Shown here piece by piece: positions 102-47,157 of a stretch of 47,925 nt of DNA. Position 1 is the stretch's first letter, and every line of letters begins with the position of its first letter. Source of the stretch: a virus (Duplodnaviria > Heunggongvirae > Uroviricota > Caudoviricetes); the IMG/VR virus record IMGVR_UViG_3300045988_143263. One strand, written 5' to 3'. The translations under genes and the position numbers were made by a program. A model generated the notes under the pieces. That model saw only the letters and a program-made list of their open reading frames with translations, made no database searches and was not told the origin of the DNA.

Positions 102-401
102 TCAGATGTTAAACGCTATTCGTTTTCCTGTGGGAAGCTCAACATCCAGGCTTAATTTGCCTCCCATAGCTTCAACGTAACGCTTTAATGTCGCCAGCTT
201 TAAATCATTTCCGCGCTGCTCCAGCTTTGTTACTGCTGGCTGGCTTATACCCATCGCCTCAGCAACCTGTTTTTGTGATAACTGGAGTTCTTCACGCATC
301 ATCTGCAAGCCGACCTCAAGAATCATCTCATCTGCCATTTCTTTAATTCGCGCCTGGCTTTCCGGTGAACGGCTGGCAATCGCCTCATCTAATGTTCTCA
401 T
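102..401 (-). CDS. higA: HigA-like antitoxin (HTH XRE-family DNA-binding protein)
   Basis: 99 aa; HTH segment SQKQVAEAMGISQPAVTKLEQ; immediately downstream of and overlapping a RelE/HigB-like toxin gene. Confidence 0.65.
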   Translation of the reverse strand: MRTLDEAIASRSPESQARIKEMADEMILEVGLQMMREELQLSQKQVAEAMGISQPAVTKLEQRGNDLKLATLKRYVEAMGGKLSLDVELPTGKRIAFNI

Positions 402-754
402 TACTTGCTCTCCAGTGTGTTCAGATGTGCTGCAAACTCATCCTCAGCTATACGCACCAGTTTTTCATAAAACCGCTTATCGTTACTTTTGTCTCCTGCA
501 CAAAGAACGATGGCCCGGCGAATCGGATCGAACGCATAAAAGGCTCTTATCGGACGGCCAGAAAACTGAACGCGAAGCTCTTTCATATTTTTGTACCGAG
601 AACCTTTTACGGTATCGGCATATGGCCTGGGTAACTCAGGTCCGTAAACCTGTAGCTTTTTCAAATCAGCCAAAACCTTTTCCTGAAGAGCGTCTTCTTG
701 CTCATTTAGCCAGTCGTCAAATCGCTGGCTAAAAAGTACCGTCCACATGCTCAA
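401..754 (-). CDS. higB: HigB/RelE-family toxin (Gp49-like addiction-module killer protein)
   Basis: 117 aa; N-terminus MWTVLFSQRFDDWL and overall pattern typical of phage Gp49/HigB-like toxins; toxin-first operon with HTH antitoxin. Confidence 0.65.
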   Translation of the reverse strand: MSMWTVLFSQRFDDWLNEQEDALQEKVLADLKKLQVYGPELPRPYADTVKGSRYKNMKELRVQFSGRPIRAFYAFDPIRRAIVLCAGDKSNDKRFYEKLVRIAEDEFAAHLNTLESK

Positions 755-3369: not shown

Positions 3370-3924
3370 TCAATGATTCCCAGCCGGAAACCTGCGGTAA
3401 AGCGTGGATAAGGTAACATCGAAGATAATCGCTATCCGCTTACGTGAAACACCATTCGCAATAAGCCTTCCGATCTGTTCCCATTGCTCTGGTGCCAGCT
3501 TTGAGCGGCGTCCTCCTATCCTGCCGTTAGCCCTTGCCACCGCCAATCCTGCACGCGTTCTTTCAATCATATTTTCCCGCTCCATCTCTGCGACTGCACT
3601 CAGCATCGTGTAGGCAAAGCGGCCAATTGAAGTGCTAATTTTTATTCCTTCCGTAATCGAAATGAACTCAATGTTGTTTGATAAAAAATGGTTAAGTAAA
3701 TCAACAAGATGAATCAGAGAACGCCCCATTCGGTCCAGCTTCCAGACAATAACCGTATCGCCCGGTCGTAACACCTTCAGTAGCTTATCAAGTCCTGGTC
3801 GTTTTGATTTAGCACCGGATATTTTATCTTCAAAAATTCGGTCACATCCTGAACTCCTGAGCGCCTCCAGTTGTAATTCCAAATTCTGGTCAAAAGTTGA
3901 CACCCTCGCATAACCATATTGCAT
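3370..3924 (-). CDS. serine DNA invertase (Gin/Cin/Hin/Pin family)
   Basis: 184 aa; N-terminus MQYGYARVSTFDQNLELQ, resolvase catalytic domain and C-terminal HTH; adjacent to invertible tail-fibre segment. Confidence 0.85.
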   Translation of the reverse strand: MQYGYARVSTFDQNLELQLEALRSSGCDRIFEDKISGAKSKRPGLDKLLKVLRPGDTVIVWKLDRMGRSLIHLVDLLNHFLSNNIEFISITEGIKISTSIGRFAYTMLSAVAEMERENMIERTRAGLAVARANGRIGGRRSKLAPEQWEQIGRLIANGVSRKRIAIIFDVTLSTLYRRFPAGNH

Positions 3925-18813: not shown

Positions 18814-19154
18814 ATCGGCATTCCTCTGTTAGTATTAACAGTGAGAGTTATTTCCAATACACCAACATTATCTGATACTTCATCAACAATATAATTTTTA
18901 CCGTTGATTTTCATTGACTGGTCTTTGACAGGGAGAACAGGAAAATCTTTTCTTGAAACAAATAATATTATTTGCCCCTGATTTATTCCCTCTGCAAACT
19001 CAGCATATGAGCGTTTATTCCGCTCATGAATAAGGTCTGTATCAATAACGGCAAGGATATCCTTGCCGTCTATGTTATATGTATCGGCAAACTCTTTTTC
19101 ATTGAGGAATATTGCAGAAATATCTTGCGCTATAACCTCTTTGAAGGAGTTCAT
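18810..19154 (-). CDS. hypothetical protein, possible head-tail connector
   Basis: 114-aa ORF overlapping neighbours by 4 nt. Confidence 0.3.
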   Translation of the reverse strand: MNSFKEVIAQDISAIFLNEKEFADTYNIDGKDILAVIDTDLIHERNKRSYAEFAEGINQGQIILFVSRKDFPVLPVKDQSMKINGKNYIVDEVSDNVGVLEITLTVNTNRGMPI

Positions 19155-33151: not shown

Positions 33152-33227
33152 TGGTGGCCCCTACCGGATTTGAACCGATGACCGTGCGATTATGAGTCGC
33201 CTGCTCTAACCACTGAGCTAAGGGGCC
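33152..33227 (-). tRNA. tRNA with CAU anticodon (tRNA-Ile2/Met-like)
   Basis: 76 nt; cloverleaf with acceptor GGCCCCU/AGGGGCC, GCUC/GAGC D-stem, anticodon loop CUCAUAA, GGUUCAAAUCC T-arm and 3' CCA; 5' half resembles E. coli ileX from memory. Confidence 0.8.
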
Positions 33228-33799: not shown

Positions 33800-34338
33800 A
33801 CCACCACTCGCTCTTTCATCCAGCCGTAGACAAACGACTCATTCGCCTCGCGCTTCTCCGCCAACTCCAGATAGCGTTCGCCCTGCGTACAGTTCAGCGA
33901 CGTCAGCATCACCCGTTCGCCGTCTTTTCCCCGATTCCCAAGATAAGCACGCAGCGCATTAATGGTACGTGGACCGATTCGTCCATCTGCATCCAAATCG
34001 GGATACAGCTTCCCACGCAGATTGAACACATTCAGCCAGCGTTGAAGCATTTTGGACGCCACTGTTGGCCCCATATTCACACCGGTATCACACAGCTCTG
34101 CGGCAATATCAGAGGATAATGCGGCCACCTGATCAAAGCGTGGTCCGTACCAGTAATCAGCCTCAAGGATTTCTAGTGCCTGTTCGCGGGTTAAATCGCG
34201 CATATCGCCACGGTATCCATGAGCACGGGCAGTGTTCTGAGTAATGCCCCACTTTGTTGGGCCTCCCTTGTCGTCAGGGTGATCCACATAGCCGCCCTCT
34301 TTTCCAAGAATGCTGTTAAAAATCTCATCTTTGGTCAT
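33796..34338 (-). CDS. endolysin (GH108-type N-terminal domain with peptidoglycan-binding C-terminal domain)
   Basis: 180 aa; N-terminus MTKDEIFNSILGKEGGYVDHPDDKGGPTKWGIT typical of GH108 lysins. Confidence 0.75.
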   Translation of the reverse strand: MTKDEIFNSILGKEGGYVDHPDDKGGPTKWGITQNTARAHGYRGDMRDLTREQALEILEADYWYGPRFDQVAALSSDIAAELCDTGVNMGPTVASKMLQRWLNVFNLRGKLYPDLDADGRIGPRTINALRAYLGNRGKDGERVMLTSLNCTQGERYLELAEKREANESFVYGWMKERVVV

Positions 34339-35841: not shown

Positions 35842-36481
35842 TTACCCATACCCACGGGTTAGATAGCCAGTTCTCTTGCCCGTAAATACCGCGCCAGATA
35901 TCACCAAAGCCAACGCGATAAACAGCTTCAGGTGGCGTAATCTTGTACGTCGCCGGAGTTGCGCCTTCTGCTTTAGCATCTGCCTCGCTCATGTCATGCA
36001 GCCGTTCCACACGCACGTCGGTAATTTCCAGCAAAATACGCGAAGCCCAGCGCGGCATGTGAATTGATGGACACCACCCGCCATCAAACTTTTCATTCAC
36101 AGTGTGAGGTTTCCAGTCAGTATCATCGGGTATCGACCACAGGCCGTAATCACCAGGCTTTTGCTCGCAACTGGCCCGATAAATCCTTGCTGCGTTCTTC
36201 TCATCGCCACGACAAAGGTTGTCGTTCCAGTCCACACTGCAACCATCCTCATTGCCTAATATCGCCCACGCTTCACGGACCCATATGCGATCACCAACGT
36301 TACCGAACGGGCATAAACCATGTTCCGGTGCATCCATAACGTGGGTATAGACACCATTGCGTTTCTTTGTCGGTTTACGGATAACCAGGCAGTTATCGGC
36401 CCTGACATTTTTTACAGGTCGGCGAGTCTGCGTTTTCCTTCCTTCGAGGATGGCCCGGACCATCTCATCGTTAAAAATCAT
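35804..36481 (-). CDS. hypothetical protein with ASCH-like N-terminal motif
   Basis: Start placed at MIFNDEMVRAILEGRKTQTRRP (the GRKT.T.R signature resembles ASCH/PUA-like domains); Cys/His-rich C-terminal region. Confidence 0.35.
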   Translation of the reverse strand: MIFNDEMVRAILEGRKTQTRRPVKNVRADNCLVIRKPTKKRNGVYTHVMDAPEHGLCPFGNVGDRIWVREAWAILGNEDGCSVDWNDNLCRGDEKNAARIYRASCEQKPGDYGLWSIPDDTDWKPHTVNEKFDGGWCPSIHMPRWASRILLEITDVRVERLHDMSEADAKAEGATPATYKITPPEAVYRVGFGDIWRGIYGQENWLSNPWVWVIEFKRIQGATSE

Positions 36482-36492
36482 GCCGCGCTCTT

Positions 36493-36804
36493 TCACTCTC
36501 CCTCCCACGTTTTCAGACTTTCACCACAAAACGGGCAAAATGAGACTCGAATAGGTGATTTAGAAAACTCACCGGAACGCAACATCACCAAATCAGGTCC
36601 ACGGGTTAAACTCTCATTCCAGATTTTGTATAGCAGTAAGCCTTTTCTTACTGAGCATTCAGCATCGTGCTCAAGAGACTTTGCCAATGCAGCACACGGC
36701 TCTATTCGATTGCCATTAATTCGACAATTTGATCCACTCACTTCAACTCCTCCCGACGACGTTCCTGAAGCTCTAGCATTGCGGCTCGGAAATCCTGCCA
36801 CCAT
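36493..36804 (-). CDS. hypothetical protein with C-terminal CxxC zinc-ribbon-like motif
   Basis: 103-aa ORF ending …SFCPFCGESLKTWEGE. Confidence 0.3.
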   Translation of the reverse strand: MVAGFPSRNARASGTSSGGVEVSGSNCRINGNRIEPCAALAKSLEHDAECSVRKGLLLYKIWNESLTRGPDLVMLRSGEFSKSPIRVSFCPFCGESLKTWEGE

Positions 36805-41220: not shown

Positions 41221-41877
41221 ATGAAAAGCAACGACGAGAACATCAAGAAAGAAATAGGTCTGCGCATTCAGACTCTACGGAAACAATCCGGCATGACTGC
41301 CGGAGATCTCCAGCAAGTCACTGGAATAGGCTTAAGCACCTTGCAGAACTATGAGGCCGGATTAAGACAACCATCTATACCTGCCATCAAGAAAATCGCG
41401 CACGCCCTGAAAGCATCAGCGCCTTATATCGCGTGCTTAACAGATAACCCGTTCCCACCCCAGAATACTAACGCTCCTGTTATTCCTGGGCTTGTAGCTA
41501 TAAAAAATGACATAGCATCGCACGCCGGAGAAAAGCCAGTGCTGGCGATAGAACAGGAGATTCTACGAAGCAAGAACATCAACCCATCGTCTCTGTCAGT
41601 TCTCCAGAGCAACGATGAGTTAATGTCACCAACAATATCCCCTGGCTCCCAAGTCCTGATTGATACAGACGATACAGAGATTCATGAGGGGATCTATGCC
41701 CTTGAAGACAGAAATGGCCTGGTTGTTTTGAGGCACTGTAGAGTCATACCGGGTGACAATGCTGTTATGCTGTCAACCGAAAGGGATGCTGAAATGAACA
41801 CTAAGCATCTGAATAACGAGGAATTTAAGCGTTATAAAGTTCTTGGCCGCGTAGTTAGTGTTGTCAACTGGTTATGA
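41221..41877 (+). CDS. CI-like prophage repressor (N-terminal HTH, C-terminal S24 LexA-type peptidase domain)
   Basis: 218 aa; HTH TAGDLQQVTGIGLSTLQNYEAG and C-terminal S24-like fold. Confidence 0.75.
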   Translation: MKSNDENIKKEIGLRIQTLRKQSGMTAGDLQQVTGIGLSTLQNYEAGLRQPSIPAIKKIAHALKASAPYIACLTDNPFPPQNTNAPVIPGLVAIKNDIASHAGEKPVLAIEQEILRSKNINPSSLSVLQSNDELMSPTISPGSQVLIDTDDTEIHEGIYALEDRNGLVVLRHCRVIPGDNAVMLSTERDAEMNTKHLNNEEFKRYKVLGRVVSVVNWL

Positions 41878-43662: not shown

Positions 43663-43686
43663 AAAAAAAGGCCCCCGAAGGGGCCT
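43663..43686 (-). terminator. rho-independent terminator (minus strand; hairpin shared with plus-strand gene end)
   Basis: ggcccc-cgaa-ggggcc 7-bp stem; A7 run on plus strand gives a U7 tail on the minus strand. Confidence 0.5.
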
Positions 43687-43691
43687 AATCG

Positions 43692-43814
43692 CTACTTGCT
43701 GCTAATGTTTATCGTCACATTCAGAGCGTTATCAGTAATCTTCCAACCCTCCCCATGTGGCGTAAACAAAGCTCCAGTAACAACGATAAAAATACACATG
43801 TAGTATTTTTTCAT
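43692..43814 (-). CDS. small hydrophobic peptide (signal-peptide or membrane-like)
   Basis: 41 aa MKKYYMCIFIVVTGALFTPHGEGWKITDNALNVTINISSK; followed by a terminator; ~170-nt structured upstream leader. Confidence 0.3.
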   Translation of the reverse strand: MKKYYMCIFIVVTGALFTPHGEGWKITDNALNVTINISSK

Positions 43815-44231
43815 TGTGTGGCCCTTACAGGCCGTTTCACGGCATCCCCACCGACGAAAATGACGCGAGAGCAAGCACGCTGTTTGTGCCTGCGTGGTAC
43901 GGCAAGTGGATAATCCTTTCCTGAAAGTCGGTGCCCGGTTGCGAATCGGCGAAAAGGCCCCGCGTAATGTTACACCGCAGCCCCTTCATAATGAAGGGAT
44001 AAAAATGTATTGTTTTTCATTAAGTTAAATACACACCACAAAAATCACTCGCTTTTGTGCTCTAACAAACCAAATTTATTTGGACAATTTTATTCAGTTA
44101 GGTAAGAATATGATTGCTGTTTGTGCTTGCGTGGTTGTATTTATACAACAACGTAATGCTGAAAGGACCGCGAATCCGATCAGCACGAAAGAACCGTCCT
44201 CAATAGGGCGGTTTTTTTGTTTCTTCACTCA

Positions 44232-44771
44232 TTAAAACAGTCCAAGACCTGTTAATGGCTTCTGATAATCTCGATTATTCATATCAGCGCCGTTATCGAC
44301 CCAATTTCTATATGCTTCATCGCAACAATACATTACAGCAGTTGGAGTAACAGGGATGCCCCCCCCAAATGAGAACCCCATTGAGCTTATGCTAATTCTT
44401 TCGAATGGCCTATTTCTCAATGCTTCAAACCCCTTGCTATTAAAGTAACGCAGCATCAGAGGCAAAAGACTATCTTCTTCCAGAGGAATGGTTCCTGGAT
44501 GGAAGTGGTAACCATAACGGTTAAATTCGGAAATAAGATTTTCTGCCAATGACATGAAATTCACTGGAGTAATATTAAGGGCTGTGAAAGCACCAAAAAG
44601 GGCGTCAACTGTTAATACAGACTGCCCGTTCTCTATCTTTGTCCATGCGTTCGGTGTTTTACCAGCAGCTTGAGCTAGCATCCCTTGATGCACACCTCTT
44701 TCTAGCCTAAGTTCTTTTATGATCATTAGGTGAATTGTTGAAAAACATGAGTTTTTTGACGGTTCAATCAT
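44232..44771 (-). CDS. HTH (XRE-like) domain protein with C-terminal domain of unknown function
   Basis: 179-aa ORF; HTH-like segment GMLAQAAGKTPNAWTKIENGQSVLTVDALF; true start may be the internal Met near 44726. Confidence 0.4.
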   Translation of the reverse strand: MIEPSKNSCFSTIHLMIIKELRLERGVHQGMLAQAAGKTPNAWTKIENGQSVLTVDALFGAFTALNITPVNFMSLAENLISEFNRYGYHFHPGTIPLEEDSLLPLMLRYFNSKGFEALRNRPFERISISSMGFSFGGGIPVTPTAVMYCCDEAYRNWVDNGADMNNRDYQKPLTGLGLF

Positions 44772-44959
44772 TTTTTATCCCCATACTGGATTTTTTTCTT
44801 GTTCCCGACTTTAACAAAACACTACAACTCAAGACTGATTAATTCCTTACAGGAACTATACATTCCCGTTTTCAGCATATCAAGAAAATTAAAAGCCCCG
44901 AATTCAAACCCACACTATGTGGTTTAGTCTGTTAAAATCCCTCTGTATTGACATGAATG

Positions 44960-45056
44960 CGCCATTGGTGGACACTTTCCGAGCCGTAGCAAAATCTACG
45001 GCCGGGATTGGAACCCCGTAGACACAATGGCGCATACCGCGTTAGCGGTTTTTTTA
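44960..45056 (+). ncRNA. candidate c4-like regulatory small RNA
   Basis: Three predicted hairpins (44984..45001, 45002..45018, 45036..45048) ending in T7; two blocks are complementary to the downstream leader at 45128..45148. Confidence 0.35.
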
Positions 45057-45221
45057 TGCGTAAAGCACTGCTACACCCAAATTATGGTGGGGCGTGCGGG
45101 GGAGTCGTAAGACTCGCCGGTTCGTCATTGTGTCCGGTAGTTCCAACCCTGCACGTCTCACCACCCAATGATTGGAACCTGACGGTGGTGAGTATCCTTA
45201 ACCTTTAAGGGAATCATCACA

Positions 45222-45413
45222 ATGACAAACCTACCCCATGACTATTACGTCAACCTCGTAAAGATCCTTCTCAAGAAAGCCTCATACGCCGATAAATTAC
45301 GCCTGGCTGAAATCATCGAGCGCGAAGCTATGCGCATCGCCAGCAACGATAACGCTGTTTCTGACGCAAAAATCTCCCTCGTAACCAAAGTAGTTATGGG
45401 AGGTGCAAAATGA
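45222..45413 (+). CDS. small protein translationally coupled to antirepressor gene (Icd-like position)
   Basis: 63 aa; AAGGGA RBS; stop overlaps the antirepressor start (ATGA). Confidence 0.35.
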   Translation: MTNLPHDYYVNLVKILLKKASYADKLRLAEIIEREAMRIASNDNAVSDAKISLVTKVVMGGAK

Positions 45414-46552
45414 AAACGCTTCCGACCGTTAACACCCTACAGCCTATCCTGCATAACCAGATCCCCGTTATCACTAGTGAACTTCTGGCGCAGTTATACG
45501 GAACAAAAATCAAAAACATTTCTGATAATTTTCTGAACAACACGACGCGATTCGTAGCCGGAAAGCATTACTTTAAAATTGAAAAAAACGAATTACGCGA
45601 GTTCAAGAACAGACCCGAAACAATCGGGTTAGTTGGTAAAAATGCCCGCTCCCTAATTCTCTGGACCGAACGCGGGGCTGCACGTCACGCTAAAATGCTC
45701 GAAACCGATCAGGCGTGGGATGTATTCGAACGGCTGGAAGACTGCTATTTCAACCAGAACGCGCAAACGGCCGCGACCGTAACCGTCTCGCCAAACAATG
45801 CTCGTGAGGTTGTCGATACGCTCAACGCCAAACCGATGTTTTACATTAAGGTGTGCAATAACGAGCCACTCACAACCTCAGCCGATGTTGCCCAGGCATT
45901 CAGCACCACAAACAATTCCATCGTTATGGCCATCGATGCGTTACGCATTCCTCGCACAGCTGCGGCGCGTCACTTCTTTAAAGAACAACGACCGCTGGAA
46001 GGAAGCGACCGCGAAATAACAATCTATCGCATGACAAAAGACGGATTTACCTTGCTCATGGAAAGTATCGACGGTCCAGGCGTGAAGGATATCAAGCTGG
46101 CCTACATTGAAGCCTTTAACGCTATCAGCAGCGTGTTAAAAACACAGTACGAGCGCGATCTGGCTAAACGACTGTACCAGGAAAAAACGATTATCCGCGC
46201 GGCAACAGAGCATAATCGGCTATTAACGGAACCGAACTACAGGAAGGAACTAATCAAGGAGTTTGACAAGGCAACAGGGAAAACCAAAGCGGCGCTAAAT
46301 CTGCCAGCAATGACTCAGGAAAATGTGATATCAGCCTTACTTCTTGATCTGCTCAGAAACGCCAGAGCACTGATCAGCTTTGACGAAAACCTGAATCCTC
46401 AGCTCAAGCTACTACCACCGACAGGCAAAGTAGTCGACCAGGCAGATCACAACAGCATACTCAGCGTACTGGATGCAAACCTGCCAGCCAGGACACTACA
46501 GGAGCTGATAAAAACATGTGCTGATAAGCTCGCACAGAAAAGCAGACCATAA
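45410..46552 (+). CDS. phage antirepressor (Ant-like, ORF6N/Rha-type domains)
   Basis: 380 aa; N-terminal segment ITSELLAQLYGTKIKNISDNF…FKIEKNEL and a second Rha-like region LTTSADVAQAFSTTNNSIVMAIDAL. Confidence 0.5.
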   Translation: MKTLPTVNTLQPILHNQIPVITSELLAQLYGTKIKNISDNFLNNTTRFVAGKHYFKIEKNELREFKNRPETIGLVGKNARSLILWTERGAARHAKMLETDQAWDVFERLEDCYFNQNAQTAATVTVSPNNAREVVDTLNAKPMFYIKVCNNEPLTTSADVAQAFSTTNNSIVMAIDALRIPRTAAARHFFKEQRPLEGSDREITIYRMTKDGFTLLMESIDGPGVKDIKLAYIEAFNAISSVLKTQYERDLAKRLYQEKTIIRAATEHNRLLTEPNYRKELIKEFDKATGKTKAALNLPAMTQENVISALLLDLLRNARALISFDENLNPQLKLLPPTGKVVDQADHNSILSVLDANLPARTLQELIKTCADKLAQKSRP

Positions 46553-47087
46553 CAACAAAGGGGCTACGGCCCCTTTAAGACACACCCCCCCTCCCCCCAT
46601 ACAGGGTGCCCTTTACCGGAGTTCCGGCCCCTTCTCAAAAGCATCAAAAAAAGCTCGAGATAGAGTACCGGAACTCATGCCACCAGATAGCTCCACATCG
46701 TTTCCAATGCTTCGCCGCCGTGTGCGCCCTGTGGCCCACAATCATGCCATTGGTCGTCTGATATACCTTCTTCTGCTCATAGAGCACAGGCGAGTTGTCG
46801 CACTCCTGCCTTTCTCAGACTCGACTTAGTTTAGATCGCTGTTCCTGGCTTGCGTCAGCACACTTTCCCCTTGTACGCATACCCGCGCGCCACTTCGCCC
46901 AAAAACACCGAACCCAACGAAGTGGCAAAGACAACGACGCGAGCGTGAGTCTGAAATGGGCACCAGTAAAAAAGGGGTTGCAGGCGCAAAAAGATTTGAT
47001 TATCTTTAGACGCAAGAAAGCCGCCCCAATCAAGAGGTGTCTTTTTAAATCCAGCCTACCAAGCAAGATTTAAATTTCAGACTGAAA

Positions 47088-47109
47088 ACCGCCCGGCAAG
47101 GCGGTTTTT
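47088..47109. terminator. bidirectional rho-independent terminator
   Basis: accgcc-cggcaa-ggcggt hairpin followed by T5 on plus strand; ~50 nt past the stop of the minus-strand HTH gene. Confidence 0.45.
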
Positions 47110-47157
47110 GTCTTTCTGGCGCTTACATTACACCACCATAAAACGATCCGTAAAGGA

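Follow-up and report, generated by a model that had tools for sequence, protein, structure and literature searches.

The locus reported here has its closest described relatives in the phage P1 immI operon and, in Salmonella, the Gifsy-1 IsrK locus. In the author-annotated P1 genome (AF234173), promoters P2c4 and P1c4 are followed by the blocks a1 and b1, a 77-nucleotide (nt) c4 RNA, a2 three nt past c4, b2 just upstream of icd, and icd itself, which overlaps ant1; the P1 C4 RNA is processed by RNase P (review; P1 GenBank annotation). In Gifsy-1, the short RNA IsrK supplied in trans raises translation of anrP'-lacZ more than 100-fold, and STnc1160 is a stable processed RNA of about 80 nt (PMC4825925). 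Hfq binding and trans-activation of antirepressor translation by IsrK are reported for Gifsy-1 only, and that paper likens the locus to P4 seqA/CI/seqC, names P4 SeqA as the structural homologue of IsrK and does not contain "phage P1" in its text (PMC4825925); a 2025 review handles IsrK and c4 as separate systems. The c4 and c4-a1b1 RNAs are widespread in Proteobacteria and phages (Weinberg et al. 2010), and tandem isrK and c4 matches have previously been noted in APSE phages. Here we describe a module at positions 44948 to 46552 of a 47,925-nt stretch of viral DNA, an Escherichia coli phage-plasmid classified as Caudoviricetes (IMG/VR record IMGVR_UViG_3300045988_143263; the whole stretch is called the window) and conclude that it is an unannotated but ordinary instance of the P1-type C4 antisense RNA antirepressor switch. 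By sequence comparison, the region is very likely a secondary-immunity (immI-type) module, with a counterpart for every one of its RNA parts in the P1 c4-icd-ant operon and the Gifsy-1 IsrK locus. A first-pass annotation, made from the sequence alone, had already recognized a P1 immI-type module in which RNA controls a small open reading frame (ORF) coupled to an antirepressor, and this identification holds. The parts of the module are as follows.

44948-44976, plus strand: putative sigma-70 promoter (-35 TTGACA at 44948-53, 17-nt spacer, -10 GACACT at 44971-76)
44983-45055, plus strand: IsrK-like short terminated RNA, equivalent to the P1 a1/b1 element (Rfam isrK and c4-a1b1)
45086-45165, plus strand: C4 antisense RNA, predicted mature length about 80 nt, ends placed by homology to P1 c4
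45172-78, plus strand: a2 target TTGGAAC, complement of a', 7 nt past the C4 3' end and placed like P1 a2
45218-26, plus strand: b2 target CACAATGAC, exact complement of the b' loop at 45124-45132 (extended to 45231, 14 nt at 93%)
45222-45413, plus strand: orf63, a small leader ORF of 63 amino acids (aa) at the position of P1 icd (from the ORF list)
45410-46552, plus strand: antirepressor gene, 380 aa, with Pfam domains ORF6N (residues 12-96) and Phage_pRha (residues 155-239)

Both RNAs fall into established Rfam families. When the entire window was scanned at gathering thresholds, the only matches were C4, isrK, ryfA, and one tRNA. The isrK match (RF01394) spans 44983-45055 with 70 bits (gathering threshold, 50) and places model position 1 on 44983, and transcription would be expected to start near G44983. 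The three hairpins that the first-pass annotation described here are real, and the run of seven T's at 45049-45055 and the block GACACAATG at 45021-45029 are exactly where it put them. In the predicted fold, hairpin 1 occupies 44983-45002, hairpin 2 (45003-45018) presents a1 (TTGGAAC, 45008-14) in its loop, b1 (GACACAATG) is single stranded, and a GC-rich hairpin at 45036-45049 leads into the T run. This is the IsrK layout of two 5' hairpins, a1 in the second loop, a free b1, and a Rho-independent terminator, with C4 directly downstream. The C4 match (RF01695) is full length at 45080-45168 and scores 77.8 bits against a gathering threshold of 45; on the same model, P1 C4 scores 68.8 bits and the Gifsy-1 homologue 69 bits. 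C4 is predicted to fold into a 17-bp basal stem around hairpin 1 and hairpin 2 (minimum free energy [MFE], -46.1 kcal/mol; z = -6.2), with b' (GTCATTGTGTC, 45124-34) within the 13-nt loop of hairpin 2, a' (GTTCCAA, 45140-46) unpaired immediately 3' of that hairpin, and a 3' overhang ACC. The 15-nt TTATGGTGGGGCGTG, which spans the annotated P1 c4 5' end, is identical in P1 and the window, as are the surroundings of the P1 cleavage site (UUAU/GGUGGGG, the slash marking the cut).

These assignments reverse the roles that the first-pass annotation had given to the two RNAs. It took the upstream terminated RNA (44983-45055) for the c4-type repressor and the sequence downstream (45126-45146) for a passive target leader. 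The blocks behind that reading all exist, but four of the five lie 1 to 2 nt from where it had put them: GATTGGAAC is at 45006-45014 rather than 45007-15, CATTGTGTC at 45126-45134 rather than 45128-36, GTTCCAA at 45140-45146 rather than 45141-47, and the same-sense copy GATTGGAACC, which is the a2 target, at 45170-45179 rather than 45169-78. Their antiparallel complementarity is also real, pairing TTGGAAC (a1, 45008-14) with GTTCCAA (a', 45140-46) and b1 (45021-29) with CATTGTGTC; it is the a1/b1 with a'/b' interaction, and the cognate blocks covary in 98 modules (see below). The upstream RNA, moreover, has its own terminator and would hence be expected as a free small RNA. It is nevertheless very improbable that this RNA is the repressor. 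It matches isrK (70 bits) and c4-a1b1 (RF03163; 39.8 bits, E 1.5e-8) and is thus the a1/b1 element, whereas the supposed leader is itself the C4 homologue (77.8 bits) and is P1 identical around the annotated c4 5' end. More than 75 nt separate the supposed target blocks from the orf63 start codon downstream of them, and the blocks are inside the RNA with the 17-bp stem; pairing there would therefore not occlude the ribosome site. The sites on the start codon side, a2 and b2, are same-sense copies of the upstream RNA blocks, so the upstream RNA cannot pair with them, and the homologous short RNA of Gifsy-1 activates rather than represses.

The targets of C4 are a2 and b2. The second of these, which spans the orf63 ATG (45222-24) downstream of a Shine-Dalgarno (SD)-like AAGGGA at 45207-12, was overlooked by the first-pass annotation, though it is the block that explains repression. 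The a1 and b1 blocks are 6 nt apart and a2 and b2 39 nt apart. Duplex energies with the C4 core, computed on core segments only, are -36.8 kcal/mol for a1b1, -13.2 for a2, and -22.5 for b2; the a1b1 pairing can run along the core almost without interruption. On the plus strand of the whole window, the only places where CACAATG follows TTGGAAC are the a1b1 and a2b2 sites, and we found no further C4 targets in the window. In a chance test of 44983-45055 against dinucleotide-shuffled 45056-45221, two antiparallel blocks, one of 9 nt or more and the other of 7 nt or more, arose in 50 of 5,000 shuffles (1%). Block complementarity alone is only modestly unlikely by chance; comparative covariation is decisive.

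Modules were compared by using TTATGGTGGGGCGTG, the 15-mer that forms the 5' strand of the C4 stem, as bait, which returned 120 IMG/VR loci; IMG/VR loci together with P1 and related plasmids make up a sample of 98 distinct modules. These modules combine 13 a types with 33 b loops in 41 ways, the stems being conserved while a' and b' vary widely. The frequencies of exact complements of at least 7 nt to C4, for cognate and noncognate partners, are as follows.

a1: cognate 99%, noncognate 0%
a2: cognate 100% (98/98), noncognate 0.1%
b1: cognate 67%, noncognate 3%
b2: cognate 89%, noncognate 3%

An alignment of 41 diverse representatives (A1) agrees with this picture: the 43 pairs of the intramolecular IsrK and C4 helices are paired in 95.9% of cases in the 41 homologues compared to about 40% in slid controls, and the intermolecular a1:a' helix shows changes on both sides at six of its seven pairs. 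A hairpin with a T run lies 3' of b1 in 95 of the 98 modules, and the short terminated a1b1 RNA therefore looks general in the sample and not a peculiarity of Gifsy-1. One further pairing appears in the alignment: GGTGGTGAG at 45184-92 complements CTCACCACC (45157-65), which is the 3' strand of the C4 basal stem, and pairing of the two would form an alternative hairpin with a2 in its loop; folding also predicts that 45184-92 can pair with 45214-20, beside the start codon. Pairing of this type comprises at least 7 exact bp in 72 of the 98 modules and is 91.9% paired in A1, but its compensatory changes all come from the P1 clade, and independent compensation was observed a single time.

Close relatives of the window illustrate how the blocks change. 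Siblings that are nearly identical around the module carry different a or b blocks, altered at all three sites. The b block is CACAATG in the window, pHN68-3, the E. coli ATCC 25922 plasmid, and the strain 103 plasmid, and CACCATG in Yersinia phage vB_YpM_39 and the plasmids of strains C311 and 1428; one IMG/VR contig (L077) with the same orf63 and antirepressor has a = TTGGCGT and b = TCATCATG. The b2 block of each of these three types still includes the ATG start codon. In the CACCATG type, b' and b2 match exactly, and b1 is TCATCATGG, the same sequence as the L077-type b block, which can pair with b' only with the help of a G-U; by this patchwork, the CACCATG type looks like a recombinant of two specificity cassettes. 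Judged from such exchanges, a and b blocks behave as exchangeable specificity cassettes. C4 modules precede antirepressors of varied types (Rha, BRO-N, ORF6N, and Icd plus Ant), and orf63 with the ORF6N-Rha protein is one further cargo.

Compared with P1 immI, the window has the same RNA family, the same order of parts and spacing pattern, a' and b' exposed at the same structural positions, a2 a few nt past C4, b2 on the translation start of the small ORF, an ATGA overlap with the antirepressor gene, and a plasmid-prophage carrier. The differences include the a/b blocks (TTGGAAC/CACAATG versus TTGACAG/GTTAGTG in P1), the placement of b2 (on the start codon itself versus on the SD in P1, where it is annotated over the icd ribosome-binding region), the a2-b2 distance (39 versus 22 nt), a weaker -10, and a stronger a1b1 terminator. 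The putative promoter aligns with the annotated P1 promoter P1c4/P51b (TTGACC-17-TATAGT) through the c4-a1b1 model alignments of both. An 11-nt perfect inverted repeat (ATGCGCCATTG and CAATGGCGCAT, 44957-44967 and 45025-45035) links the promoter spacer to the overlap at the b1 3' end; it would be relevant only given a transcript start further upstream, as at P1's second promoter. Unlike in P1, orf63 is unrelated to Icd, the antirepressor is of the ORF6N plus Rha type and not Ant1, the module promoter lacks a C1 operator, and the primary repressor resembles lambda CI.

The Gifsy-1 locus (IsrK/STnc1160/orf45/anrP), mapped here to 34076-34316 of NC_010392 (minus strand, IsrK +1 at 34316), resembles the window in its tandem isrK and C4 Rfam matches before an ORF6N-type antirepressor and in its short terminated RNA and read-through mRNA. 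Its a type is TTGGCGT, the anrP gene has b2 (ATCACCG) directly on its own SD, and C4 is not followed by a separate leader ORF, in contrast to the distinct conserved 63-aa ORF between C4 and antirepressor in the window. The P1 a1/b1 region scores 51 bits on c4-a1b1 and 35 bits, below threshold, on isrK, and Gifsy-1 IsrK is above threshold on both models; because P1 a1b1 and Gifsy-1 IsrK match both, the isrK and c4-a1b1 families are one element. Residues G28 and G31 of IsrK fall in a1 (UUGGCGU, nt 26-32), and C159 and C162 of orf45 fall in a' (ACGCCAA) of the C4 homologue. In the compensatory pairs G28A/C162U and G31A/C159U, the wild-type conformer was restored and the raised basal translation was partly lowered (Hershko-Shalev et al. 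2016, PMC4825925); since the mutations fall in a1 and a', these mutants test a1:a' pairing directly. The published orf45 has its first AUG at nt 107, which coincides with the AUG conserved in the C4 5' stem (UUAUGGUGGGG).

On the protein side, the first-pass annotation was right that a 63-aa ORF is followed by an antirepressor gene. The antirepressor ATG overlaps the orf63 stop as ATGA (45410-45413), the same 4-nt overlap as in P1 icd/ant1, and this overlap suggests translational coupling; the antirepressor gene also has its own SD, GGAGG, at 45399-45403. The 380-aa protein has, besides ORF6N and Phage_pRha, many anti-repressor PHROG matches with E values down to 1e-66; Ant1 matches anti-repressor PHROGs as well, and the two proteins share weak matches to phrog_63 and phrog_1726. 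The description of orf63 as "Icd-like" survives for position but not for similarity, since orf63 has no BLASTP match to Icd and belongs to phrog_7886 whereas Icd belongs to phrog_1426. Homologues of orf63 form 34 clusters (60 to 97% identity, mostly 63 aa) from genera including Escherichia, Salmonella, Yersinia, Klebsiella, Hafnia, and Erwinia.

Annotation of this region in public records is uneven. Some gene callers lengthen orf63 to 95 aa, and sources call the product "ash family protein"; the added N terminus, MMTGYANPVRLTT..., is the translated C4 3' half plus a2 (window 45126-45221). Taken alone, this extension hits Pfam PF10554 Phage_ASH (E 5.9e-5, profile positions 64-92), which suggests that the Ash family is in part built on C4 RNA genes read as protein. 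RefSeq (PGAP) splits the 380-aa ORF into an ORF6N pseudogene and a Rha-family gene in at least five plasmids, with the Rha-family gene flagged partial in one record. The antirepressor frame is open throughout in pHN68-3 (380 aa) and is annotated whole in the ATCC 25922 plasmid, and the split annotation is probably an artifact of a two-domain fusion.

We propose that transcription would begin near 44983 and that most transcripts would end at the terminator (45036-55), giving a 73-nt IsrK-like RNA that shows a1 and b1. Read-through transcripts would include the C4 domain (45086-45165), from which RNase P would excise a stable RNA of about 80 nt, as P1 homology suggests. Its exposed a' and b' would pair with a2 (45172-78) and b2 (45218-31) on the mRNA, cover the orf63 start codon, and block translation. 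The antirepressor would fall silent with orf63 because the two genes overlap, through lost translational coupling and Rho-dependent polarity as in P1; Biere, Citron and Schuster reportedly described Rho-dependent polarity in silencing of the P1 operon in 1992, and a 1995 study by Hartmann et al. reportedly also bears on RNase P processing or Rho polarity in P1. The short RNA, with both sites side by side, would compete for a' and b', whether on free C4 or on the long transcript's C4 domain, and thereby switch the operon on, as for IsrK in Gifsy-1, after which the antirepressor would presumably inactivate the CI-like repressor (41221-41877). The sequence analysis itself establishes the RNA families, their structure, and the covarying three-way complementarity; for C4 processing, the sign of each interaction, and the protein target of the antirepressor, we infer from analogy with the known systems.

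Two other accounts use the same parts differently. In a Gifsy-1-type cis lock, a1/b1 would pair with a'/b' in the read-through transcript, free short RNA would invade and open the ribosome site, and the C4-like domain would be merely structural. Folding of the full leader (44983-45240) does give an MFE structure that pairs 45003-45035 with 45120-45150 (-102.6 kcal/mol versus about -87.5 for the summed separate parts), and two such conformers are supported in Gifsy-1 by native gel and mutant data (PMC4825925). As the whole explanation this is nonetheless unlikely: it leaves the strictly covarying a2 and b2 without a role and fails to explain the conserved RNase P-type end (3' ACC overhang and P1-identical cleavage site sequence), the stable ~80-nt STnc1160 RNA is seen in Salmonella, and P1 c4 is a genetically defined trans-acting repressor (P1 annotation, review). 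The cis lock and the trans-acting C4 model are compatible, not exclusive.

Somewhat less likely again is control of the P4 type, in which C4 would pair with b1 (and a2/b2) on nascent RNA and promote termination at 45036-55 or downstream, with its effect mainly on transcription. P4 immunity does share with the window a processed small RNA from its own operon leader and complementary sites both upstream and downstream, and Hershko-Shalev et al. raised the termination idea for STnc1160 (PMC4825925). For the free short RNA, moreover, the predicted MFE form is an alternative hairpin at 45028-45044 (UGGCGC...GCGUUA) that overlaps the 3' end of extended b1 (45021-32) and the 5' arm of the terminator, competing with the terminator stem, and P1-type modules have a comparable hairpin overlapping b1; in such a fold, the hairpin is a possible antiterminator disrupted by C4 pairing. 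Such a hairpin is present in the window, P1-type modules, and some other module classes but is not universal, and only in some classes is it the predicted MFE. The position of b2, which coincides with the start codon here and with the SD in other members, is the one that a translational block predicts. In Gifsy-1, coexpression of STnc1160 left the IsrK effect unweakened (PMC4825925). P4 immunity itself is distinct in that CI acts by premature transcription termination of replication genes, not by start codon occlusion of an antirepressor operon. P22 immI is like the window in that a small antisense RNA (sar) blocks translation initiation of the antirepressor (ant), but sar is an opposite-strand cis-antisense RNA over the ant ribosome site, whereas the window RNAs are all on the same strand and act through short dispersed blocks.

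Several observations weigh against the C4 decoy model that we prefer. With the Gifsy-1 mutation G28A, placed in a1 in cis, basal translation went up and not down, for which the authors invoke a cis structural lock (PMC4825925). A simple decoy role thus does not fit all results, and therefore a cis lock and a P4-like terminator effect may coexist with C4-mediated translational repression. RNAcofold and dimer partition calculations gave no net binding (+0.3 kcal/mol for IsrK plus C4 and -0.7 for leader plus C4), but these programs can form loop-loop contacts only by opening the stems, which makes the result uninformative. The c4-a1b1 match of the window is under its gathering threshold of 46.7 bits, and a consensus promoter scan made no call at 44948-44976 because the -10, GACACT, is weak. 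At the protein level, orf63 gave no BLASTP alignment with P1 Icd at E values up to 100, and the best BLASTP E value between the 380-aa protein and Ant1 was 5. The P1 C1 operator ATTGCTCTAATAAATTT is absent at the module promoter; its single match in the window (up to three mismatches; 44072-88, minus strand) is far away, and at least one match of that quality occurred in 29 of 100 shuffles. Because Icd and Ant1 homology and a C1 operator at the promoter are all lacking, the protein side is analogous rather than orthologous to P1. At the RNA level, in contrast, the module has every testable feature of the C4 and IsrK families. A fuller form of the model, which we offer tentatively and rate as possible but less likely than not to be correct in full, is a two-RNA toggle in which IsrK and a1b1 are one element, the terminated a1b1 decoy would titrate processed C4, and C4:b1 pairing would act back on the terminator, which determines how much decoy is made relative to C4 plus mRNA.

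The module sits in a 48-kb E. coli sequence that, by its matches and gene content, is a circular phage-plasmid. Its closest matches are circular Escherichia plasmids of 46 to 51 kb and the 49-kb Yersinia phage vB_YpM_39, and it encodes plasmid functions (IncFII RepA, ParA, and a HigB/HigA-like pair), a lambda CI-like repressor with a weak S24 domain (41221-41877), and, by homology with related plasmids and phage, a lambda-like head and a P2-like contractile tail, which bears out the first-pass remark that the structural background is not that of P1. The E. coli ATCC 25922 plasmid (NZ_CP009073) carries the same module with the same a/b specificity. Two features flank the module.

44232-44771, minus strand: divergent XRE-type helix-turn-helix (HTH) gene, 179 aa, a candidate transcriptional regulator of the module
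46556-46577, called on the minus strand by the terminator scan: GC-rich hairpin directly after the antirepressor stop

The HTH gene has its own promoter-like site, TTGATA-17-TATAGT (44883-44855, minus strand), and also adjoins the module in vB_YpM_39, pHN68-3, and the ATCC 25922 plasmid. A search of the module promoter with the 20-mer LexA box consensus at up to three mismatches gave no match, and the sole CTGT-N8-ACAG in the window is at 18826. The GC-rich hairpin has no clean T run on the plus strand and is the probable operon end. Beyond the antirepressor, about 600 nt (46553-47157) contain no convincing ORF, include a C-rich tract (46588-46600), and end in a strong hairpin with a T run (47089-47109); the Rfam scan of this noncoding stretch gave nothing credible.

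Other accessory loci were apparent elsewhere in the window. A full-length ryfA match (RF00126, 136.6 bits) lies at 43664-43962 on the minus strand, in a gap that is unannotated in the pHN68-3 RefSeq record; within it, an ORF at 43692-43874 (minus strand) contains a short hydrophobic peptide, MKKYYMCIFIVVTGALF..., and the locus may be a type I toxin-antitoxin serving plasmid addiction. The tRNA (anticodon CAU, 33155-33227, minus strand) is labeled tRNA-Ile in pHN68-3 and tRNA-Met in Yersinia phages, and a pmgT-like segment at about 35986-36504 has 92% identity to P1; by this similarity, the two are P1-related accessory genes in an otherwise non-P1-like phage-plasmid. A Gp49/HigB-like toxin with an HTH antitoxin is encoded at 102-754 (minus strand). 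A serine resolvase/invertase gene (3370-3924, minus strand) lies beside ORFs that match pHN68-3 tail fiber genes by position and is probably part of a host range switch.

Antisense control of antirepressors has been known since 1990, and that basic picture is unchanged. What the analysis adds is a function for about 270 nt that carry no annotation in the records examined (five RefSeq plasmids and one related phage), in a module that is likely the switch for an SOS-independent induction route of a common E. coli phage-plasmid found also in ATCC 25922. The identity of isrK with c4-a1b1, the placement of the Gifsy-1 mutations on a1 and a', and the exchangeable cassettes matter more broadly than this one instance, and together these side results connect the literature on the P1 repressor RNA with that on the Gifsy-1 activator RNA in a single testable model. 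If the two-RNA toggle is true, orf45 of Gifsy-1 would be for the most part the C4 RNA gene in translation, the Pfam Ash family would in part consist of translated C4 sequence, and dozens of freely recombining a/b specificities would define heteroimmunity groups among enterobacterial prophages and phage-plasmids.

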